Below, piece after piece: positions 1 through 28,200 of a stretch of 28,200 nt of DNA. Numbering within the stretch: the first letter of the stretch is position 1; the number at the start of each line of letters is the position of its first letter. Under the pieces are notes generated by a model. The model was not told the origin of the DNA, did not search any database, and saw only the letters and a list, made by a program, of their open reading frames with translations. Origin of the DNA: an uncultured bacterium (GTDB taxonomy: Bacteria; Auribacterota; UBA3054; CAZCLS01); contig CAZCLS010000005.1 of assembly GCA_964499565.1 (NCBI GenBank), positions 1 through 28,200 on the forward strand, written 5' to 3'. The translations under genes and the position numbers were made by a program.

Positions 1-3000
1 GGGATCGGCAGCACGGTTGGCTATCCATTCGCAATTCCGATTGAAGAACGCGTGTGCGGTAAAGGTATGTGCCCGGCCATCGTCCTGCGCCTGGAGGACG
101 GGCGCAAGCGCTGTTTCACACGCGGCTCGTTCATAGATGAGGACCAGGATTACATTCTCGACTTGTACCGCAAGGAGATGGACCGGTTGCGCACGACGCA
201 GGCGCCGCCGCCGGCAAACTTGCGGCCGGGTCTGGCCCGGGAGTGGCCGCAATGCGAGCTCTATACGCCAGGCACCTTCCGGCTTGAGAGTGACTTTTTC
301 GTTTTCGTTTCGGGCTCTCAGGGCCCCCTGGGTGAATTCAGCGCCTGGGTAAATGAAGATGACAAGGACCGTGCCAGGCAATATCGCGAGGCGACCGTGC
401 GCCATTTCGAGGACTACTGGGCCTACCTCGAGTACGCGGGACAGAGGAAACATTACTGGAATGAACCAGAATCGACCTGGTGCAAATATATAGTAAAGGT
501 TCCCGGCACGCGCAAAGACGGTTTCGGTGTAATCCCGGGTTTTGCGGGCGGCGGGCGTGGCGCCTGTGAAATCAAGGATGCATCCTGGCCGGCTTTATAT
601 CATGAATGGGCCCATGGCTCGCCCAGCAGCACCAGCCTTGGCGGCGGTGAAGTGAAGACCGACTCACATCAGCCGCTGGCCGACCCGATGTTGATCGCTA
701 AAGTCGAGCACCAGATTCAGAGGCCATTCATGAACCTTTTTCACGGTTGGTATCCGGGCGGACTCGGCTGGACAATGATGGGAGACGACCCGAACTGGGG
801 ATACGCGGCGGTTGCATCACTGAACTCGATGGGCAGCGGGGTAGCCACGCCTATGCATATGATTGCCAAATTAGGCCAGGAACGGGGCATATGGAAGGAC
901 GGTATCAGGGGTGTGGGTGATTTCTTCGGCCAGATGGGCGCCCGCTTTGCCGAATACGATTGGGAGCTGGAAGCGGAACTGCGGGCAACGTTTCCGGCGC
1001 CTGACCGGGCCTGCCTCGTTGCGCTGGATCGCAAGGCCGGGCTCTATCGCAGTGACCCGGTCGAGGCGCCCGAGCCGTTCGGGGTGAACATAGTCCGCCT
1101 GACGGCGGAACCGGATGCGAAAAAGATCAGCATTGATTTCCGCGGCCACTTCGATCCCGACACGTACAGCGACTGGCGCGCCTGCATTGTGGCCGTCGAC
1201 AAAGACGGCCGGTGCCGCTACAGTCCCCTGTGGAACAAAGGCTTGATGAATATGGATACCCGGCCAGGTGACAAGCGCTACTGGTTAACGGTGACAGCCA
1301 CACCGTACGCGCTGGCCAACGCCGGGAAAGACGGGAAATGGTATGGTTCTCCGTACGCGTACAAGTATCCCTACGACGTTCAACTCTCGGGTTGCCGGCC
1401 GGCAAGCCCGCATACTCCTGTCGGCGTAAACGAGAACATGGACCTGATCGGGCCGCGTTGGGCGAAGAATGCGATCACGGGAGGGCAGCGTAGCGGGGCG
1501 ATGGACTGGCCCCATCCGTCGGACACGCCTGAATATGCCAAAATGAAAGCCAGTCTGGAGCTGCTTCGTGAGAAGGCGCCGGATGCGATCAAAGCCCATC
1601 TGGCCGAAGGGCTTTACGGAGGACGTCCTCCCGAGCGAACGCTCATGGTATCGGCTCTGCTCACACCCCGCGCGAACTGGCTGCTGGAGAATGCGCAGGG
1701 ATCACGGCATCCGAACGGCGGCGGCTGGGTGGCTAACTCGGCGACGGTGGCGCCGACCGCCTATGTAGGTCCTGACTGCATGGTACTCGACGGCGCCACC
1801 GTACTGGACAGGGCGATCATCGAAGACTACGCGATCGTCAGCGGGGAGGATGTCGTCGTCAAGGACAACGCCAGAGTTTACGGCAAAGCTGTTGTGTGCG
1901 GTGCGGTCGAGTTGTCAGGCTATGCGCGGGTCTCGCGCAACATCATCAACCGGAACTGCACCATCGAATTCAATCCCGGCAATACCAATGTCCCATTCAA
2001 CGCTGAGATCATGGCCTCCGGCATGGTCAAACGTTCGGGTCCCGAGTTACGGCGGTTTGTATTTGATGGATTCGATCTCGGCCTGCAGGCAAATTACGAG
2101 TTCGACCAGCAGGAAGCAGTACTCATGGAGGACTACTATCAGGAGCACGGCAATGATGACACATACCTGCAGGAACTGGTGTTTTACAACGGCGTACTCT
2201 ACGGCCAGCCGGGATTCGTGAAGGATGGTGACATCAGAGCGGTGACATTCAACGGCAAAGACCAGTATGCGGAGGCCGCCGCGACCGTAGCGGATCTGGG
2301 CCAGATCACGGTGGATATCTCGCTCAAGTGGAAGGGCGGCGCTGACCAGACGATCTTCGATTTCGGGACGTCCGAGGACAATTGCTTCAAGTTGGTCCTG
2401 CCTGCATCAGGCAAGCCGGAGTTACAGGTGCGCGCCAATGGCAAGAGCGAAACGGTCGCGTCGCGCTCGCCTGTTGCGAAAGGTGTATGGGAAACCGTCC
2501 GGGTCGAAATCGATGGGAAGACGATCCGTCTATGGCTCAATAACGAGAAAGTTGCCGAGACCGAATCACGGTTCCGCGCGGCGGATGTCTATCCCGCCGG
2601 CGCCGAAAAACGGAACTTCATTGCCGCGGCCCGCGGCGGGAAGAATCCGTATTGCGGAGCGCTCGACTATGTACACATCTTCCACGTTGTGCATGAGGAC
2701 TTCAGCCGCACACCGGAGGTGCCCCTGGTTTCATCGCGCCGGATCAATCCGGACTATCCCCGGCGTTTCGCCACGAAATACGCCGACTACGAACTCAAGG
2801 CGTTGAAGCTCGTGGCGGAATACGATCAGGATGAACTGTACCGGTTCTACAAGGACTTCTATGAGCATAACACCAGGAGAAAATCGGAGCTTCAGCACTC
2901 CGATGAAGTCGATCGGCTTGAGAAGGAACTGCTGGAATTGACATCAGAGCGGGATCGCAGGAAAAAGGACATTGAAGACGAATTCGATTCCCGTCCAGAA

Positions 3001-4011
3001 ACCCCGGAAAAGCTCGCCAGGTTCACCGAGTTGAAACAGCGTTACGATACCCGCCAAATGGAGATCCGCAAGCAGTATGAACCTGAACTCGCTGAACTGA
3101 GCAAGAAAAGAAATGCTGCCAGCAGTATCGTGAAGGAGATCGAAGATACGGTGCGCGCGAAGCATGCCGCCGAGCTTGCGGCAAACCAGCTGGAGATCGA
3201 TGCATTGAGGAAGGCATACGATGCATATCTGGCTGGACTGCTCGAAAAGAATCCTGATGCCAAAAAGATTCAGGAGAAGCTGCGAGCCGCTGAGGAAGAA
3301 CTCTCGTTACTCGACCAGCAGAAAGATCACGATCGTTATGAACGTGTGGCGAAGACGATCAAAGGATTCGAGCAACATTTGCGCGAAATCAGAAACCGTT
3401 TTAATGCAGACCAGAAGGCACGTGATATACAAAACCGGCGCGAGAAAAGGGAAGCGCTGGGGCGGGCCATCATTTCCGCGGAAGCCGGCCTTGATCCCCG
3501 CTATGTCGAGGCGGCAAAAATGTTGGAGAGAAACGGTGTCATCGATCGTCGCTGGAGAGAAATCGAAAGGACCCTCATCCCGGAACACCCCGACCTTGTT
3601 GCTATCAAAAACGAGATGGATGCGATTGATCCTGTCATTGAATGCCGGAATGTGGTTGAAAAGGATTTGCGCGATATTGGGATGAAGATCAAGGCCATGG
3701 AAGCCCGGATCGGGAAAGCTCGACAGGATGCGGCGGTCGCCAACAATTGGGATGAGTTCAACGCCCTCCCGATGGGTTGGACCGAAAGGCAGCAGTATGA
3801 CGCGATAGAGCGGATGATACGAGCCCGCAAACTACCTTTTATTACCGAGTACGAAAAAAGATTCGATGCGGCATTTGCAAGCCAGCAGGCGAAATGGCAC
3901 ACGAAGGTGGACTGGGATGATCGTCTTGATTGGGAAAAAATACCGTTCCAGGAATTGTCGCCGACCGTGCAGAACTGGCTGAAAAGAACGAAACCGTATG
4001 TGTATAAGTGA
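1..4011 (+). CDS. 5'-partial giant multidomain protein: SHD1-like segment, DUF6055/Svx(AvrXca)-like HExxH metallopeptidase, left-handed beta-helix, LamG/ConA-like domain, long coiled coil, Trp-rich C-terminal motif
   Basis: Frame 1 is open from base 1 (GIGSTVGYPFA...) and aligns with the middle of the 23046-27875 paralog (GIGNAIGDPFA...), so the GTG at 52 is not the true start. Motifs: HEWAH at 601-615 plus E at 649-651; HPNGGGWVANSATVAPTAYVGP from 1708 followed by hexapeptide-like repeats; LamG-like FNGKDQYAE...WETVRVEIDG...RNFIAA (~2065-2710); E/K/R-rich helical region ~2780-3890. Confidence 0.8.
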   Translation, partial: GIGSTVGYPFAIPIEERVCGKGMCPAIVLRLEDGRKRCFTRGSFIDEDQDYILDLYRKEMDRLRTTQAPPPANLRPGLAREWPQCELYTPGTFRLESDFFVFVSGSQGPLGEFSAWVNEDDKDRARQYREATVRHFEDYWAYLEYAGQRKHYWNEPESTWCKYIVKVPGTRKDGFGVIPGFAGGGRGACEIKDASWPALYHEWAHGSPSSTSLGGGEVKTDSHQPLADPMLIAKVEHQIQRPFMNLFHGWYPGGLGWTMMGDDPNWGYAAVASLNSMGSGVATPMHMIAKLGQERGIWKDGIRGVGDFFGQMGARFAEYDWELEAELRATFPAPDRACLVALDRKAGLYRSDPVEAPEPFGVNIVRLTAEPDAKKISIDFRGHFDPDTYSDWRACIVAVDKDGRCRYSPLWNKGLMNMDTRPGDKRYWLTVTATPYALANAGKDGKWYGSPYAYKYPYDVQLSGCRPASPHTPVGVNENMDLIGPRWAKNAITGGQRSGAMDWPHPSDTPEYAKMKASLELLREKAPDAIKAHLAEGLYGGRPPERTLMVSALLTPRANWLLENAQGSRHPNGGGWVANSATVAPTAYVGPDCMVLDGATVLDRAIIEDYAIVSGEDVVVKDNARVYGKAVVCGAVELSGYARVSRNIINRNCTIEFNPGNTNVPFNAEIMASGMVKRSGPELRRFVFDGFDLGLQANYEFDQQEAVLMEDYYQEHGNDDTYLQELVFYNGVLYGQPGFVKDGDIRAVTFNGKDQYAEAAATVADLGQITVDISLKWKGGADQTIFDFGTSEDNCFKLVLPASGKPELQVRANGKSETVASRSPVAKGVWETVRVEIDGKTIRLWLNNEKVAETESRFRAADVYPAGAEKRNFIAAARGGKNPYCGALDYVHIFHVVHEDFSRTPEVPLVSSRRINPDYPRRFATKYADYELKALKLVAEYDQDELYRFYKDFYEHNTRRKSELQHSDEVDRLEKELLELTSERDRRKKDIEDEFDSRPETPEKLARFTELKQRYDTRQMEIRKQYEPELAELSKKRNAASSIVKEIEDTVRAKHAAELAANQLEIDALRKAYDAYLAGLLEKNPDAKKIQEKLRAAEEELSLLDQQKDHDRYERVAKTIKGFEQHLREIRNRFNADQKARDIQNRREKREALGRAIISAEAGLDPRYVEAAKMLERNGVIDRRWREIERTLIPEHPDLVAIKNEMDAIDPVIECRNVVEKDLRDIGMKIKAMEARIGKARQDAAVANNWDEFNALPMGWTERQQYDAIERMIRARKLPFITEYEKRFDAAFASQQAKWHTKVDWDDRLDWEKIPFQELSPTVQNWLKRTKPYVYK

Positions 4012-4085: not shown

Positions 4086-6263
4086 ATGAAAACTCACACA
4101 ACAACCCTGGCAGCGTTTGTGCTGCTTAGTGCTCAGGCCGCATTTGCAGTGGATGACGGCATCACGCTGTTGAAAACAAATTCCTTTGAGATACCAGACT
4201 CGACAGGCATCACAATGATACGTATCGAGGCTGGGCGTTTCCTCATGGGTAGTCCCCGGGAGGAGGTGGCACGCGCTGAAGACGAGGTTCAGCACGTGGT
4301 GACGATCTCAAAGCCGTTCTACATGGCCGAGACTGAGATTACCCAGGACCAGTACCTGCCGGTCATGTCGCCTGACTACAAACCGGTTTTCATCCGTGCG
4401 GCCGCGTTTGGGCACAGCCTACCCGAGGTACATCAGAACGGGCCATTCATCACGGAGTCCGCCTATCTGGGACCGACGGACAAAAACCCGATGGACGGCG
4501 TCAGTTGGCCAAAGGCGGTCGAGTTCTGCCGAATCCTCACCGGGAAAGAACGCAAGGCCGGCCGTTTGCCTGAAGGCTATGTCTACCGCCTGCCCACGGA
4601 AGCTGAATGGGAGTATGCCTGTCGCGCGGGAACCGGCGGACCGTTCAATGTCGAAGAAAACCTTACCTCCTTCTGCTGGGGTCCCGATGTAGGAAAGACG
4701 AAGTGGACCAAACCAGTCAAAGGTCGTTACATTCCCAATGCGTGGGGTCTCTACGATATGCACGGTAATGTCTATGAGTGGTGTCATGACTGGTACACAT
4801 CCTACGACACGAATGACCTGACGGATCCCGCTGGTTCGGCTGAGGGCGAACAGAAGGTTGCCCGCGGCGGATCATGGAACTCCGGCAGGCCGCAGGGTGA
4901 TGACAACAGTGACGCGGTTCGCCTGCGATATATGCGCTCCGCCTCGCGCAATCGATTTCCCCCTGATCGTCCGCTTGCCATCATCGGCTTTCGGCCGGTG
5001 CTGGCCCCGATACTGCCAAAGCAACAACAGGCCCAGCAGCCTGCCTTTTCCCCGAAGAACGAACCGCAGACGGCACGCCAGGAGCGGCGCCTGACATTCG
5101 ACGAGTACGCCGATAAGATGAAAGCCGGTTGGGTGGGACAGATGGCGGGTGTCGGCTGGGGCGGCCCGACCGAGTTTCGCTATAAGGGCCTCATCATCCC
5201 GGAAGATAAGATGCCCCAATGGCAGCCGGAAAAAGTCAACCAGTTCCAGCAGGATGACATCTATGTTGAGATGACGTTCCTGCAAACGCTTGAGAAACAC
5301 GGGCTGGACTGTTCGATCCGCCAGGCGGGCATTGACTTCGCTAACAGCGGCTATAATCTGTGGCATGCCAACCGGGCCGGCCGCGACAACCTGCGGCGCG
5401 GCATCGCTCCGCCCGACTCGGGCCACCCGCAGTTCAACAAGCATGCCGATGACATCGACTATCAGATCGAAGCTGACTACAGCGGTCTGATCGCGCCCGG
5501 CATGCCGCAACTGGTGATAGACCTTGGAGAAAAATTCGGACGGCTGATGAACTACGGCGACGGATTGTACGCCGGGCAGTTTGTCGGCGGCATGTATGCC
5601 GAAGCGTTCTTCGAGAACGACATGGTCAAGATCGTCGAGGCGGGCCTGCGCTGTATCCCCGCGCAAAGCCAGTATGCCGGGATGGTCCGCGACATGCTTG
5701 CCTGGTATGAAAAAAATCCCGACGATTGGCAAAAAACCTGGCAGTGGTGTGAAGACAAATACCACAAGAACTCCGAGTACTCCCACGGCTTGTGCAGCAA
5801 GTCGGGCGGTGAGAACGCTTTCAGTATCGACGCCAAACTGAATGGGGCGTATATCATTATGGGCCTGCTGTACGGAAAAGGCGATCCGGACAGGACAATC
5901 ATTATATCGACCCGCTGCGGTCAGGACTCGGACTGCAATCCGTCGAACGCCGGCGGGATTTTGTTTACCACGATCGGTTTCTCGAACCTGCCCGGGCGGT
6001 TCGTATCGGAACTTGCTCCGGAAAAGACTTTCAGCCATACGCCGTATGATTTTCCAACCTTGATCGAGGTTTCGAAAAAACTGGTGCGGCAGGCCGTCGC
6101 GCGCAGCGGCGGGCGCATCGAGAAAAGCGCCGACGGAGGCGAAGTGCTGGTCCTGCCGGACATCGCCCCAAAGCCGAGTTCCTTCGAGCCCGTCTACCAG
6201 CCCGGCCCGATTGCCGGAAGCACTTTTACAGCCGGGGAGCAGGCCGAAATCAGCAAACAATGA
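4086..6263 (+). CDS. Exported FGE-sulfatase (SUMF1)-fold protein fused to an ADP-ribosylglycohydrolase-family domain
   Basis: Sec-type signal (MKTHTTTLAAFVLLSAQAAFA). FGE-fold motifs: FLMGSP, RLPTEAEWEYACRAG, NAWGLYDMHGNVYEWC, RGGSW, IGFRP. Q/P-rich linker ~5010-5090. ARH-like motifs: AGWVGQMAGVGWG, QDDIY (DD at 5253-5258), CGQDSDCN (DSDC at 5925-5936). AGGA lies upstream of the ATG. Confidence 0.85.
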   Translation: MKTHTTTLAAFVLLSAQAAFAVDDGITLLKTNSFEIPDSTGITMIRIEAGRFLMGSPREEVARAEDEVQHVVTISKPFYMAETEITQDQYLPVMSPDYKPVFIRAAAFGHSLPEVHQNGPFITESAYLGPTDKNPMDGVSWPKAVEFCRILTGKERKAGRLPEGYVYRLPTEAEWEYACRAGTGGPFNVEENLTSFCWGPDVGKTKWTKPVKGRYIPNAWGLYDMHGNVYEWCHDWYTSYDTNDLTDPAGSAEGEQKVARGGSWNSGRPQGDDNSDAVRLRYMRSASRNRFPPDRPLAIIGFRPVLAPILPKQQQAQQPAFSPKNEPQTARQERRLTFDEYADKMKAGWVGQMAGVGWGGPTEFRYKGLIIPEDKMPQWQPEKVNQFQQDDIYVEMTFLQTLEKHGLDCSIRQAGIDFANSGYNLWHANRAGRDNLRRGIAPPDSGHPQFNKHADDIDYQIEADYSGLIAPGMPQLVIDLGEKFGRLMNYGDGLYAGQFVGGMYAEAFFENDMVKIVEAGLRCIPAQSQYAGMVRDMLAWYEKNPDDWQKTWQWCEDKYHKNSEYSHGLCSKSGGENAFSIDAKLNGAYIIMGLLYGKGDPDRTIIISTRCGQDSDCNPSNAGGILFTTIGFSNLPGRFVSELAPEKTFSHTPYDFPTLIEVSKKLVRQAVARSGGRIEKSADGGEVLVLPDIAPKPSSFEPVYQPGPIAGSTFTAGEQAEISKQ

Positions 6264-23045: not shown

Positions 23046-26000
23046 ATGAACATTCCGATTTTTTGCGGCTTGCTGACAATTCTGATCGGCACGACTAGTG
23101 TGCAGTCGTATGATTTCTTCGACCTTTCACGTTATCCTGAGGGTGGAAAACTTAAACCGGGTGTCGAACTGTATTCCGTAAAGAAAGCAGGCGGGGCGCC
23201 CGAGAAGTATGTCCGCCGGGTAGTGCACTGGTGGCCTCGTAAGGGCGTCGATTTCGTTGACATCGAGACGGGAATGATCCCGCGCGAGTGGACCCTGAAG
23301 CCCGGCATATTCGACGACGGGCAACCCCCGCCGCTTCACCTTGATTGGAAAACATTCGAACACGACAAACTGGATATGCCGGTCGACGTCGGCGACAAGT
23401 ATATCAGGCAGATCCAGGGTTATCTGCATCCACCGAAAGACGGCGATTATATCTTCAAGATTGCTGCCGACGATATGGGTGTTTTCTTTCTCAGTACCAA
23501 TGATTCTCCTGACAACATCAGGCTGGTCTGTTATTCCCGGGCAAGTTCGCCCCGTAATAATTTCACCCGGTACGATGGACAGATTTCCGTGCCGGTCCCG
23601 CTCAAGAAAGGCCGCACGTATTATTATGAGGTTCTGCAGAAGGACGAAGGCTCAAGCGATAATGCCATGGTAGTGTGGGAGACCGCCGGATTGGAAGAGG
23701 AGGTTATAGGCGGTTCGGCCATATCCACCCTGGAGGGTGTGCCCGGGATAGTCATCGAGCGACGGGCGTCTCTGCTCCAGGATGTGAACACCGGCATTCG
23801 CCCCAGGCGCGAGCCACAATCATTCAAGGCGCACCTGATCGGATTTGACGGCATAGGCAACGCCATCGGCGACCCGTTCGCCGGAGAGGATTTCTTCGAA
23901 CCGAGTGTGATCCTTCGCATGGCGGACGGCAGGAAGAGGGTTTTCAGGTCCAAGAGCTTCTGCCAGGCTGATCGTGAATTCATCCTCGATATCTACCTTA
24001 AGGAAATGAAGCGCATCCAGGGCACTCTGGACAAGACGGTCTACGGAATCAAGCCGCAGACTCTCAAAGAGTATCCCGGCGGCACACCGATCGGTGAGCC
24101 GGGATCGCTCCTGCTGCAGTCGGACCACTTTGCTGTACCCTCTGGAAGCCAGGCCTCCGGTCCCAATGACCGTTGGCTCAATCCCGAAAAGCCGGAGATC
24201 GCTGCCCGTTGCCGGGAAAGTGTCTTCACCATGTTCGAACACATGCACGCCTACCTGGAATACGGCGGTCATCTGATGCCTTACTGGGACCGCCCCGAGC
24301 AGTACAAATACGAGGTTCATGTGGGCGGTACGATCCTCAATGGACATATATCAAAAGGCGGTGGCGCTGGGGGCGGCTACGGTGCTCAGGGCATGGGCTG
24401 GCTGGGCGCGAATCCCGGCGGGTTCGGTCACGAATATGGCCATGGCATGTCGATCCAGTGGCGCGTGGGCAATGGCGAAATTCTAGCCCAGTCTATGATG
24501 GAACTTACCGATAACCGCTGCACCTCGTATGATCATAACATCAATGTACCGTGGCGCAACTGCGTGCATGCCGAGTATAACGCCTGTCTGTTCTACAGGG
24601 GGATCGGCTACGACCCCAACTGGGGGCTGCTCGCGGTTACCGCCATGCCGGCCTCGGCCGAGGAACCCAGCATCTTCCAGACTCTGGCGCGCCTTGGCCA
24701 ACAGCGCGGCATGTTTAAAGACGGTATCCGCGGAATGGGCGATATGGTGGGTGACTACAGCGCGCGTCTGCCGGAATTAGACACGCCAAACCAGGAACCT
24801 GTACGCAAAGCCTATTTCGCAGCCGCGCGTAACTACCTTGAGGCAATCGATCCGGCCAGGGGCGTCTACAGGATTCCCTGGGATGAAGCGCCCGAACCTT
24901 TCGGCGCTAACATTATCCGGCTTGTGCCGGAAGAGGGCGGGAAGACGATTGAAGTCGATTTCCAGGGGTATCATGATCCTGCGGTCTACAGCGACTGGCG
25001 TGCCTGTATCGTGGCGGTGGATCATGAAGGTAATGCGCGCTACAGTGATCTGTGGAATAAGGGCCGCATGACAATGGTACGCCGGGAAGGTGATCGGCGT
25101 TATTGGCTGACCGTGGCGGCTACACCGAGTGCGCTGCTGTATCCATGCGACATGACAGTGTACCAGGGCATCTATGCTCCCCGTTACCCATGGCAGGTGA
25201 CACTTCGCGGCGCCGTGCCGGGTATGCCGCATCGGCAGCGTTTAGACCTGGATGATGTCCACGCGGCTTATGGCACCTTCTTGTTGAGCGGACTGGTTCC
25301 GGTCATTCCAAACACAGAAGCGGGCAAACAGTTCCTGGCGGATACACAGTCTTTTGTGGACGAGTTGCGCCAGCGCCTCGGTCAGGCAACCCTCCCGGAA
25401 AAACTCGCGTACGGGCGGTTGATCAGACCCGCTGCGGCCGCCGTCGCGGCCATGCAAGGCGCCCCGCACCCCAATGGCGGCGGCTGGGTGGCCGCCAGTG
25501 CCGAAGCGGCGCTGACCGCCTATGTCGGACCGCAGGCTATGGTGTTGGATAATGCCAAAGTGCTGGATCATGCTATTATTGAAGATTTCGCGGTCATCAA
25601 AGACCGTGCGGTCATATCAGGGAATGCCCGCATCAATGGTCAGGCTGTGATATCCGCAGACACTCGGCTGACTGGATATCAGCGTGCCTGGATGCCGCTG
25701 CAGCTCACAGCCGACACGGAAGCGCCGGAACTCACAACACGCCGGATGGAAAACCTGGACGAGAACGGCCTCTGGGCCAACTACGCCATGGACCAGCCTG
25801 AAGCCGTTATGCTCGAGGATTGGTATCGTCAGCATGACGGCGCCAGCTTCCGCGAGTTCTTTTGCAGCCTTATGAACGGGTATCTGTATGGGCGGCCCGA
25901 TTTCGTCACCGAAGGCTCCAACGCAGGATTTGCTTTTGACGGCAAGACCCAGTACGCGGAACTCAACCGCCACATCGCGGATCTATCTCAGATTACTGTG

Positions 26001-27875
26001 GACATGGTGGTCAAATGGCAGGGAAACGGCAAACAGACGCTGCTGGATTTCGGATCCGGTGAAGACAACCATTTCATGCTGACCACCGACGGCAAAGACG
26101 GAAAGCTCGCGTTCGTTGCTATCGTCGATGGCAAGAACGTTGCCGGCCTGACATCCTCGATCGCCCTTGCCCGGGACGCCTGGACACGAGTGCGCCTGGA
26201 GATCGACGGCAGGCAGATAGCCTTGTGGATCGATGACAAGCCGGTGGGTGAAGCCGCATCCACTTTCCAGCCCGCCCACGTGTTCAAAGCTGGCGTGTTG
26301 CAACGCAACTTTATCGCCGCAGGATTTGACGGCAGGGATCTATTCAAGGGCATCTTCGACAACGTGGTGGTCTATCATAAAGTGCACGGCGAAGAGTTTA
26401 CTAATCTGCCCGCACCATTTTGCGATGCGCCGCGGCGGCCTGATAAGGGATTTGCCATCGGCGTTCTCAGGAGTATGGGGGCAACCCCGTTCGAGCAGGA
26501 TGACAGGAAGAACCGTCTTGCCGAAAGACTCCTTCAGGAATGGAACAGCCGTGGTGGTCGCGCACTTACACAACTGATGGAGCTCAAGTTCCGTGTTCCG
26601 GAATACCTGGATGCGGTCGAAAAGGCCAAAGCCTTTGAGCAATGGAAGAAAGAGAGCACTGAGCAATTCCAGCAGGAATTTGACACGCGTGAGAAGGCCC
26701 TGGGTTTAACGGATCAAATTACCGATTTGAAGCAGAGGATCGCTTCTCTGGAACTAAAGTCCATTGAGTTACGGAAACAGAAGGCCGTGGATGCTCCGCC
26801 TTCCAAGCCAACCAGGAAAATTGTTGAACTGCAGGAAATGATTGAGCCGCTTGAGGTACAGCTTGCTGATCTCCAGAAGATAGAGGCGGACGCCCGTGCC
26901 GCCGTTGCGGCGATGTCGGAGAACAAAGCCGCTCAGGAAGAGATCACCCTCCTCGAAGAAGAGATAAAGCCCCTGGCCGAAATGGCCCGCAGCCGTCTCA
27001 AAGAACTGAATGATGGCGCGAACGATGACGCAGACATGAAGGCCTGGATTCGCGCTCAGCAGCACATCCCGTATTCAAAGGAAGACAAACGCGTGGTCAG
27101 GGCCATAGGTGAGTTGCGCGGAAACGTGAGGGACGCCCTCCTGTACATGATGAAGGAGGAACTTACGGCACGGGACGCCGAGTTCAGAAAGTGGTCGGAA
27201 CTGACAGAGAGAGTGGAAGACCTGAAACGCGAAGAACTCTATCGTCTGTATGATTATCTGTTGAAGAATACTGAGCATCCCGGGCTGCTCATTCAGAACC
27301 GATGGGATCAAGGCGAGCTTGCCGAAGTAAGCAAAGCACTGAATGAAGCGAAACAGCAACTCCAGAACGAGCAGCGGAATGCTGAGCAGAACAATGGATT
27401 GAGCGTTGAGGACAACATCCTGCTACAGAAGTGCAAGGATCAGTTGAACGAACGGGAGACCGATCTGCGCGAGGCCCGGGCCACGTACGTGGACGAGAAG
27501 CTGCGTGAAGCGGGCCTGATCGAGAAAGAGCAGGCGGTAAACAACCAACTCGAGGAAGCCACGAAGATAGTCGCAAGCACATACCACGCCGAGTACCACG
27601 TCTTGTGTTCATTCATCCGCCAGAACTTCCACGGCTTCTACAATGGGAGGATCAGCGAGTATATCGACCGGTATGCCCAGAAAGTTGTCGGCGGCGTTTC
27701 CCTGCGTGACAAACTTGACCAGGTAGAAAAGATCGAAGAACTGTACCTGCCTGAAAACTGGAAAACCAGTGTTGACCAATGGGATTGGCGCACTGTATGG
27801 GAGAAAGACGGCAGTATCGAAAATTTGCCTTTGACGAGGAAATGGTTGAAACGTGTCCGCGGGAATGCAGAATGA
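23046..27875 (+). CDS. Giant exported multidomain protein: PA14, SHD1-like, DUF6055/Svx-like HExxH metallopeptidase, left-handed beta-helix, LamG, long coiled coil, Trp-rich C-terminal motif; paralog of 1-4011
   Basis: Signal peptide (MNIPIFCGLLTILIGTTSVQS). PA14-like IQGYLHPPKDGDYIFKIAADD...LKKGRTYYYEVLQKD (~23340-23730). HEYGH at 24429-24443 plus E at 24477-24479. HPNGGGWVA from 25467. LamG-like FDGKTQYAE...RNFIAAG (~25770-26400). Helical E/K/L/Q-rich region ~26490-27750. Confidence 0.82.
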   Translation: MNIPIFCGLLTILIGTTSVQSYDFFDLSRYPEGGKLKPGVELYSVKKAGGAPEKYVRRVVHWWPRKGVDFVDIETGMIPREWTLKPGIFDDGQPPPLHLDWKTFEHDKLDMPVDVGDKYIRQIQGYLHPPKDGDYIFKIAADDMGVFFLSTNDSPDNIRLVCYSRASSPRNNFTRYDGQISVPVPLKKGRTYYYEVLQKDEGSSDNAMVVWETAGLEEEVIGGSAISTLEGVPGIVIERRASLLQDVNTGIRPRREPQSFKAHLIGFDGIGNAIGDPFAGEDFFEPSVILRMADGRKRVFRSKSFCQADREFILDIYLKEMKRIQGTLDKTVYGIKPQTLKEYPGGTPIGEPGSLLLQSDHFAVPSGSQASGPNDRWLNPEKPEIAARCRESVFTMFEHMHAYLEYGGHLMPYWDRPEQYKYEVHVGGTILNGHISKGGGAGGGYGAQGMGWLGANPGGFGHEYGHGMSIQWRVGNGEILAQSMMELTDNRCTSYDHNINVPWRNCVHAEYNACLFYRGIGYDPNWGLLAVTAMPASAEEPSIFQTLARLGQQRGMFKDGIRGMGDMVGDYSARLPELDTPNQEPVRKAYFAAARNYLEAIDPARGVYRIPWDEAPEPFGANIIRLVPEEGGKTIEVDFQGYHDPAVYSDWRACIVAVDHEGNARYSDLWNKGRMTMVRREGDRRYWLTVAATPSALLYPCDMTVYQGIYAPRYPWQVTLRGAVPGMPHRQRLDLDDVHAAYGTFLLSGLVPVIPNTEAGKQFLADTQSFVDELRQRLGQATLPEKLAYGRLIRPAAAAVAAMQGAPHPNGGGWVAASAEAALTAYVGPQAMVLDNAKVLDHAIIEDFAVIKDRAVISGNARINGQAVISADTRLTGYQRAWMPLQLTADTEAPELTTRRMENLDENGLWANYAMDQPEAVMLEDWYRQHDGASFREFFCSLMNGYLYGRPDFVTEGSNAGFAFDGKTQYAELNRHIADLSQITVDMVVKWQGNGKQTLLDFGSGEDNHFMLTTDGKDGKLAFVAIVDGKNVAGLTSSIALARDAWTRVRLEIDGRQIALWIDDKPVGEAASTFQPAHVFKAGVLQRNFIAAGFDGRDLFKGIFDNVVVYHKVHGEEFTNLPAPFCDAPRRPDKGFAIGVLRSMGATPFEQDDRKNRLAERLLQEWNSRGGRALTQLMELKFRVPEYLDAVEKAKAFEQWKKESTEQFQQEFDTREKALGLTDQITDLKQRIASLELKSIELRKQKAVDAPPSKPTRKIVELQEMIEPLEVQLADLQKIEADARAAVAAMSENKAAQEEITLLEEEIKPLAEMARSRLKELNDGANDDADMKAWIRAQQHIPYSKEDKRVVRAIGELRGNVRDALLYMMKEELTARDAEFRKWSELTERVEDLKREELYRLYDYLLKNTEHPGLLIQNRWDQGELAEVSKALNEAKQQLQNEQRNAEQNNGLSVEDNILLQKCKDQLNERETDLREARATYVDEKLREAGLIEKEQAVNNQLEEATKIVASTYHAEYHVLCSFIRQNFHGFYNGRISEYIDRYAQKVVGGVSLRDKLDQVEKIEELYLPENWKTSVDQWDWRTVWEKDGSIENLPLTRKWLKRVRGNAE

Positions 27876-27937: not shown

Positions 27938-28200
27938 ATGAAGACTTTACTTTGGATACTGCCGACGCTCATGTTACTGCCGGCCTACACCACATTTTCC
28001 ACGAATGACGTGGCTTCAATGAAGCAGTTCAGCGCTAAAGAATGGACAGTCCCGGAGATTGAGATGCAGATGAAATTAATCCCTGCGGGGAGCTTCACTA
28101 TGGGTAGCCCTACAGGCGAAATCTGCCGGCGGAACGACGAAGTACAACATCCGGTTGTTATCTCCAAACCCTTCTATATGGCCGCCTTCGAATGCCGTCA
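27938..28200 (+). CDS. 3'-partial exported FGE-sulfatase-fold protein; paralog of 4086-6263 (absent from the ORF track)
   Basis: Manual translation: MKTLLWILPTLMLLPAYTTFS...MKLIPAGSFTMGSPTGEICRRNDEVQHPVVISKPFYMAAFECR. This matches RIEAGRFLMGSPREEVARAEDEVQHVVTISKPFYMAETE in the 4086 gene. AGGA lies upstream; there is no stop before the window end. Confidence 0.85.
   Translation, partial: MKTLLWILPTLMLLPAYTTFSTNDVASMKQFSAKEWTVPEIEMQMKLIPAGSFTMGSPTGEICRRNDEVQHPVVISKPFYMAAFECR

Follow-up and report, generated by a model that had tools for sequence, protein, structure and literature searches.

The DNA analysed here (the window) is one entire contig of 28,200 nucleotides, CAZCLS010000005.1, from the genome of an uncultured bacterium of the phylum Auribacterota (79% complete, 4.3 Mb). 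It contains two paralogous giant open reading frames, both on the forward strand, whose products end in a matching Trp-rich motif of about 38 residues, named here the tail. Giant 1 (P0001) occupies positions 1-4011, is open at its 5' end and shows an HExxH domain similar to Svx and DUF6055, a beta-helix, a LamG domain, a stalk and a C-terminal domain (CTD), on the basis of Pfam PF19527 and PF13385 and of NF040510 (113 bits). Giant 2 (P0002), with 1609 residues encoded at 23046-27875, shows the same series of domains preceded by a signal peptide and a PA14 domain. The two tails are encoded at 3895-4008 (residues 1299-1336, stop codon at 4009-4011) and at 27759-27872 (residues 1572-1609, stop codon at 27873-27875). 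Their translations agree with the sequences given in an earlier note on this DNA, which had located both tails correctly, although its ranges included the stop codons and omitted the first residue listed (K at 3892-3894 and N at 27756-27758), a trivial difference.

Each giant is directly followed, as had been noted before, by an exported protein gene with the fold of the formylglycine-generating enzyme (FGE), which we call the partner. The gap between giant and partner gene is 74 nucleotides in the first pair and 62 in the second, and no terminator-like site or hairpin was found between the two genes in either pair. Partner 1 (4086-6263, forward strand) encodes an FGE-fold domain (PF03781, 1.5e-40) fused to an ADP-ribosylglycohydrolase domain (PF03747, 8e-27). 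Partner 2 (27938-28200, forward strand) is cut by the end of the contig; it shows a signal peptide, the N-terminal segment that is typical of class I partners (..MKQFSAKEWTVP..) and the start of the FGE fold (PF03781 start). Other partner genes that we observed, of about 330-420 residues, do not have the ADP-ribosylglycohydrolase domain.

The metallopeptidase Svx is secreted and carries an acyltransferase-like beta-helix domain (PMC9266454, PMC10815107, PMC13164431). The giants score 68.9 and 74.7 bits with PF19527 (DUF6055), whose cut-off is 27, and their HExxH motifs read HEWAH and HEYGH. With NF040510, the family of Svx and AvrXca of Pectobacterium and Xanthomonas, they score 113-116 bits, far below the equivalog cut-off of 625, and they are thus relatives of the Svx family and not Svx orthologues. 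The matches cover profile positions 299-575 (approximately) of 601, that is, the conserved block up to the beta-helix, while the PA14, LamG, stalk and CTD of the giants lie outside these matches; hexapeptide-repeat and LpxA-like matches over the beta-helix are weak. On these matches, the giants are stalked, much enlarged relatives of Svx peptidases. A literature search on DUF6055 found nothing on the stalked form or on the tail.

The two giants share 35% identity until the end of LamG (BLASTP, E = 8e-166), and the similarity then fades in a charged, helical stalk. In giant 2 this poorly conserved stalk extends over 26433-27545 on the forward strand (residues 1130-1500, approximately); its final 40 residues were modelled by AlphaFold2 as long helices with a predicted local distance difference test score (pLDDT) above 90, and from its composition we infer that the rest is a coiled coil. 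Giant 1 runs on into another contig of the source genome, C427 (L085:2-2839, minus strand), where the end of a 946-residue open frame matches the first residues of the window (positions 1-60). Giant 1 thus has about 2260 residues, of which about 930 are N-terminal to the Svx-like core. Upstream of giant 1, C427 also shows another tail (77 bits) and a 329-residue FGE-fold gene, which makes at least three consecutive pairs of giant and FGE gene.

In the comparison of both giants, the tails form a BLASTP segment of their own, with 16 of 34 residues identical (E = 0.002 for this single comparison). With the tail hidden Markov model (HMM), copy 1 scores 48.8 bits and copy 2 scores 69.6 bits, and in the profile search of the source genome they score 58 and 78.8 bits, respectively. 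A local HMM made from the tails of homologues found the motif in 81 of the 97 homologues listed for giant 2, with 30-76 bits; the homologues without it are mostly cut by a contig end, finish in frameshift-like junk, or are distant relatives without a stalk. Mean identity along giant 2 in relation to 16 homologues is 0.52 in the core, 0.26 in the stalk (residues 1150-1500) and 0.65 in the last 38 residues. Therefore, the tail is a conserved island after a poorly conserved stalk, and it is the best-conserved stretch C-terminal to LamG.

Four positions of the tail are invariant across the family (first W, R, E and last W), and the T, the second W and the P are nearly so. These positions belong to the consensus proposed in the earlier note, in which the W of its W-E-K element proved not to be conserved. 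Two classes of tail were distinguished. Class I (..W.T.vDW[DE]WR...E.DG.I..LP...KW[LI].R.RG..) includes copy 2, which is canonical and ends in ..KWLKRVRG, and class II (..W.T.VDWD.R..[WYF]E......P...[QR].[WY]LKR.KP[YW].Y..) includes copy 1, which ends in ..WLKR.KPY.YK. One clade, the short-tail clade, shows the pattern ..NPYPG...YHTTADWD.R..EE..G.VP.MK.WLLRVRG[YF]. Neither of the two tails contains a hydrophobic segment.

In most subfamilies the conservation continues about 60 residues upstream of the tail (E..L......G.YN..Y.......GG), so that the conserved unit is of about 100 residues and not 38. In giant 2 this CTD is encoded at 27579-27872 (residues 1512-1609, approximately) and its last 38 residues are the tail. 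In giant 1 it lies approximately at 3694-4008 (about residues 1232-1336), an extent set by analogy with the model of copy 2, and it is conserved beyond the 38 residues with P0073, P0188, P0204-P0209 and P0213. AlphaFold2, applied to residues 1470-1609 of giant 2 with an alignment of 107 rows, predicted an all-alpha domain with a mean pLDDT of 87.7 and of 81-95 in the tail. Helices were predicted at model positions 45-59, 67-78, 88-97, 115-119, 121-124 and 126-136; the tail is modelled as short helices and then a closing helix of 11 residues over ..PLTRKWLKRVR.., and the high confidence in loops and short helices suggests that it packs on the preceding helices. The tail is thus predicted to be the last and most conserved part of a helical CTD of about 100 residues, a folded module and not a terminal signal peptide. 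The mini-domain capping the stalk that the earlier note had considered gains support from this model in altered form, as a confidently modelled helical domain without known structural relative, which is larger than supposed and of which the tail is only the end.

The CTD could not be assigned to any described domain. No Pfam family was found at E ≤ 1 for residues 1200-1336 of giant 1 or 1480-1609 of giant 2, the 130-residue context gave no relevant NCBIfam family, and a profile search against PDB gave no match. Foldseek found no relative of the model in PDB (none at E < 7) or in BFVD, and in the ESM Atlas the best score was just 0.53, with no relative. The earlier note had not recognised the tail as PEP-CTERM, T9SS CTD or LPXTG, and no matching Pfam or NCBIfam model was found; the tail matches no defined domain and is conserved in the wider set of homologues, the two points on which the earlier note would have stood corrected. 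The CTD is a previously undescribed domain, absent from Pfam, from NCBIfam and from the structure libraries that were searched.

Searching 1.84 billion representative proteins with a profile of 66 tails (E ≤ 0.001) gave 121 matches. BLAST of each match showed that 119 of them align to the DUF6055/Svx-like giant family well beyond the motif, most being C-terminal fragments from short metagenome contigs, and the other two (P0181 and P0191) are repeat artefacts with 9-10 partial stretches each. The CTD is therefore restricted to Svx/DUF6055-like giants of uncultured bacteria, with HExxH domain, beta-helix, LamG and usually PA14. The suggestion that the tail is a sorting signal carried by unrelated exported proteins fails at this point: one protein family has it, the tail is not always terminal, and it lacks a hydrophobic segment.

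Most carriers have the tail 0-17 residues before the C-terminus (30 in P0183); however, internal tails were found in L006b, P0003-6, P0177, P0070, P0196 and P0195. L006b (L006:7808-12286) is a complete gene with about 200 residues of coil after the tail and still has an FGE gene downstream; P0003-6 and P0177 are of the same type. The coil that follows the tail in the L006b type is homologous to the middle of the giant 2 stalk, so that stalk and CTD look permuted. In P0070 and P0196 the tail is followed by a linker and an FGE domain. P0195 (1138 residues), a class II relative, lacks a stalk almost entirely; its tail comes after an acidic linker and is followed by about 340 residues of other domains (a weak FN3-like match, the rest unassigned). 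This protein indicates that the tail can occur without a coiled coil and in a non-terminal position. Cases such as P0003-6, P0070 and P0195 show that the tail requires no free C-terminus, and internal tails make a signal read at a free C-terminus unlikely.

Linkage with the FGE gene was analysed in 79 loci from GTDB species-representative genomes, obtained with the conserved beta-helix block as query; all frames were scanned with the tail and FGE HMMs and the tally was made from domain coordinates. The loci belong to Planctomycetota, Akkermansiaceae and other Verrucomicrobiota, Kiritimatiellia, Victivallales, Phycisphaerae and a few others. Among 55 tail-bearing giants with a complete 3' end, the FGE gene is downstream in 32, upstream in 10 and on both sides in one; four have none and eight were not assessable. 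Hence, an FGE gene is adjacent in 43 of the 47 assessable tail-bearing genes from other genomes. When downstream, the FGE domain begins 108-319 nucleotides past the stop codon of the giant. By contrast, none of 10 truly tail-less relatives has an adjacent FGE gene; most of these end at LamG, at other domains or at the C-terminal domain of the secretion system of type IX (T9SS). The only relatives negative with the tail HMM that have an FGE neighbour, L019 and L077, both show recognisably degenerate tails. In annotated contigs, FGE genes were found upstream of P0025, downstream of P0062 and between P0014 and P0010, with none beside P0084.

All six giants of the source genome (in C427, the two in the window, and in C226, C86 and C232) are directly followed by an FGE gene of the partner type, in a genome with 24 FGE-sulfatase-domain matches in total. 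The giants of C86 (L088:5806-9507, minus strand) and C232 (L087:1696-5391, plus strand) have about 1232 residues, with a stalk that is short and a tail that is strongly degenerate and carries an insertion (..W.RSSD..[11 aa]..W.[KR].G.L.GEYDKL....K.WYLHTHG..), and they were missed by the tail profile; their partner-clade FGE genes carry a longer N-terminal extension. Several FGE proteins of this genome, of 440-480 residues, form a separate long-branched clade. Natural fusions in which giant, tail, linker and FGE domain are joined in this order occur in two separate groups, P0070/P0196 and P0074/75/83, the latter with a degenerate tail.

In a tree of 69 FGE domains, the partners group in a single clade of 60 rows (support 89/94), outside which lie seven of the eight other FGE paralogues of the source genome included in the tree. 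The eighth (C289) falls inside it and lies at a contig edge. The partners show an N-terminal segment after the signal peptide, which is of two types: type 1, ..[ML]K.L.A..WTVP.....M..IP.., and type 2, ..[FY].[ILV]P[DE][ST]... Class I tails occur with type 1 partners and class II tails with type 2 partners in 41 of 41 pairs, including different pairs of the same genome (L037 and this window), and class II tails pair only with one subclade of partners (support 95/98), to which partner 1 belongs. The tail of L037b is intermediate between both classes. The complete matching of subtypes indicates that giant and partner diversified as a unit.

Although the partner matches PF03781, the family of true FGE (SUMF1), its nearest solved relatives by sequence are PvdO, a variable surface protein of Treponema denticola and PorK, all of which rank ahead of FGE. 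Its best NCBIfam match is GldK (TIGR03525), with 98.2 bits for a cut-off of 350. In the consensus of 49 partner and fusion sequences, Cys is invariant at a single place, ..EYACRAG.., and nearly so in ..FC.KL.., with none in ..RGG....RSA.R... The catalytic Cys pair of FGE, C-x-x-x-x-C, lies in the C-terminal part of the FGE domain, where the partner consensus, the level at which the two were compared, shows no such pair. With PvdO and PorK ranking ahead of FGE and no Cys pair seen there, it is probable that the partner does not mature sulfatases, although a sulfatase is encoded in the window, and it appears to be non-catalytic. PorK is a published precedent, a ring subunit in which the FGE fold serves a structural purpose (PMC12421860, PMC12365241).

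The reading that we favour, at slightly less than an even chance, is that the CTD serves to dock or assemble the giant with its cognate FGE-fold partner. The CTD, which closes the stalk of the exported Svx/DUF6055-like metallopeptidases, would bind the FGE-fold protein encoded next door, and stalked enzyme and partner would meet at the stalk base as a 1:1 complex, for which we infer an anchoring role. Docking had been one of the proposals of the earlier note, and it gained support from the adjacency, the natural fusions, the dedicated partner clade and the matching subtypes, which are indirect but strong evidence.

Several points weigh against docking. The short-tail clade keeps the tail, usually without an adjacent FGE gene (P0084, L024a, L029a, L049, L058a and L076); three of these (L024a, L029a and L058a) adjoin another pair of giant and FGE gene, and no conserved alternative neighbour was seen in the short-tail loci lacking the FGE gene. 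Two further loci, L057 and L060, have divergent tails similar to class II and no FGE neighbour. The Fisher test for 43/47 versus 0/10 gives p = 2e-8, a value that overstates the association because the genomes are related. As tail and stalk nearly always occur together, linkage statistics cannot tell which part meets the partner. Furthermore, co-diversification fits a specific interaction, yet co-inheritance without contact would give the same pattern. Finally, in the AlphaFold2 model of a natural fusion (P0070:1395-1819) the FGE domain is confident and the tail has a pLDDT of 31-48, with a predicted template modelling score of 0.64; with just five alignment rows over the tail, this model neither supports nor refutes docking.

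A different explanation, possible though doubtful in our judgement, is that the CTD is an autonomous domain of the stalk end, which caps or oligomerises the coiled coil or latches onto the head of its own protein, and that its cooperation with the FGE protein is purely functional, as when both act on one glycoprotein substrate, and involves no contact. The confident fold of the isolated CTD in AlphaFold2 and the persistence of the tail in the short-tail clade would suit such a domain, and an intramolecular partner is compatible with the finding that the tail always accompanies one and the same Svx-like head. However, tail-less relatives share this head and need no latch, the tail is retained in P0195 although there is hardly any stalk for it to cap, and the strict 1:1 pairing with a subtype-matched clade of partners would be left unexplained.

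It is unlikely that the tail is a direct envelope anchor, in which the Trp-rich basic end (..KW[LI].R.RG) would bind membrane lipid, lipopolysaccharide, peptidoglycan or an outer-membrane protein, so that the enzyme is tethered and its head is held off the surface. A cleavable signal peptide, an enzymatic head, a long stalk and a conserved end do suit a tethered surface enzyme; a composition of aromatic and basic residues is typical of interfacial binding; and Bacteroidota homologues have a T9SS sorting and attachment domain in place of stalk and tail. Nevertheless, the model places the Trp residues within a confidently predicted fold and not in a free amphipathic helix, the tail can be internal or precede an FGE domain, and a generic envelope-binding module would be expected in other families too, which is not the case.

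The Bacteroidota homologues also link the giants with a known sorting system. L043:11024-11383 (from a metagenome-assembled genome (MAG) of Chitinophagales, 39.8 bits) and L063:8711-9070 (from a Bacteroidales MAG, 30.1 bits) end in Por_Secre_tail (PF18962) and have neither stalk and Trp tail nor FGE neighbour. A true T9SS CTD is thus found exactly where the proteins of PVC-type bacteria (Planctomycetota, Verrucomicrobiota and kin) have stalk and CTD, which suggests, by analogy, that the C-terminal end decides the localisation of the enzyme. Both systems combine a Sec signal on the cargo with a conserved C-terminal module of about 80-100 residues, and both include an FGE-fold protein, which in T9SS is without FGE chemistry and here appears to be so. 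The differences are that the CTD of the giants shows no match to PF18962 or TIGR04183, that its model is all-alpha and not a beta-sandwich, and that it is limited to one protein family, with one partner for each cargo gene instead of a shared ring. In addition, T9SS is not expected in its host lineages, which comprise Planctomycetota, Verrucomicrobiota (with Kiritimatiellia and Victivallales) and others. The partner differs from PorK/GldK in being far below the TIGR03525 cut-off and in that the signal peptides of partners 1 and 2 lack a lipobox Cys (PorN was not searched in the source genome).

A secretion or sorting signal, read by a dedicated machinery that perhaps includes the FGE-fold protein and brings the giant, once exported by Sec, through the outer membrane or onto it, would share with T9SS its cargo layout, an FGE-fold component in PorK (PMC12421860, PMC12365241) and the C-terminal position of the T9SS domain in the Bacteroidota homologues, but it is improbable, as the motif is on one cargo family when sorting signals serve many, each giant has its own partner and no shared machine, the tail is not always terminal, Por_Secre_tail is not matched and the predicted fold is alpha, and the loci showed no additional conserved genes for such a machinery. 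The layout of sortase and exosortase-type signals (PEP-CTERM, LPXTG and GlyGly-CTERM) is not found either, with no hydrophobic stretch, no NCBIfam model and an internal tail in L006b, P0070 and P0195. The tail was also considered as an FGE substrate motif (C/S-x-P-x-R) and rejected, since ..LPLTR.. has the wrong spacing for it and the catalytic cysteines seem to be missing from the partner.

In its logic, the CTD most resembles a docking module with a cognate partner, for which the dockerin-cohesin pairs of cellulosomes may serve as analogy. In both cases a small, family-restricted terminal module of exported enzymes that degrade glycans or proteins is proposed to dock to a separately encoded partner, with pairing of module and partner subtypes that is specific for each paralogue. 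In contrast to dockerins, the CTD shows no sequence or fold similarity to them and no match to Pfam Dockerin_1, the partner has an FGE/C-type-lectin-like fold and not a cohesin fold, the genes are 1:1 neighbours instead of many enzymes for one scaffoldin, and docking is here only proposed. A wider reading, which we consider rather unlikely, would make the CTD and the FGE-fold protein an unrecognised two-component device by which Planctomycetota, Verrucomicrobiota/Kiritimatiellia and allied phyla anchor or display stalked enzymes that degrade glycoproteins on their envelope. In it, the FGE protein would be the envelope-bound base and the CTD its plug, a counterpart of the T9SS CTD or of dockerin-cohesin in bacteria lacking both.

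Between the two pairs of giant and FGE gene, the window encodes a glycoside hydrolase of family 32 (GH32), FAD oxidoreductases, a sulfatase, a DUF5695 protein, a GH2 protein, a lyase of the dihydrodipicolinate synthase family and a NanM-SSF fusion, so that sulfatase, GH2, GH32 and sialic-acid genes surround the giants. Glycan degraders of marine and fresh waters carry such giants; at least 371 relatives of the family came from a single scan of species-representative genomes, with many paralogues in several genomes. A single MAG of Akkermansiaceae holds at least nine loci, clusters of two to three giants within 10-20 kb were seen in many genomes (L003, L004, L019, L024, L029, L037 and L058), and a short-tail giant without an FGE gene of its own often adjoins a canonical pair. 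In the phylum of the window, the tail was found in just one of 79 species genomes, which is the source genome itself (four profile matches), and the other 78 have no copy. The closest relatives of the giants belong to Planctomycetota, Verrucomicrobiota/Kiritimatiellia, Phycisphaerae and Sumerlaeota. The distribution is compatible with, and hints at, a horizontal acquisition of the whole module from PVC-type bacteria.

The CTD is a new domain that could enter the family databases, and if docking fails, an ordinary domain of unknown function remains. A large clade of genes now annotated as enzymes of the "SUMF1/EgtB/PvdO family", which can be confused with sulfatase maturases, gains a likely structural role. 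Little is understood of the way in which such bacteria retain enzymes of very large size at their surface, and an end domain specific to the family together with a dedicated FGE-fold partner would be a concrete candidate for the attachment or assembly step.

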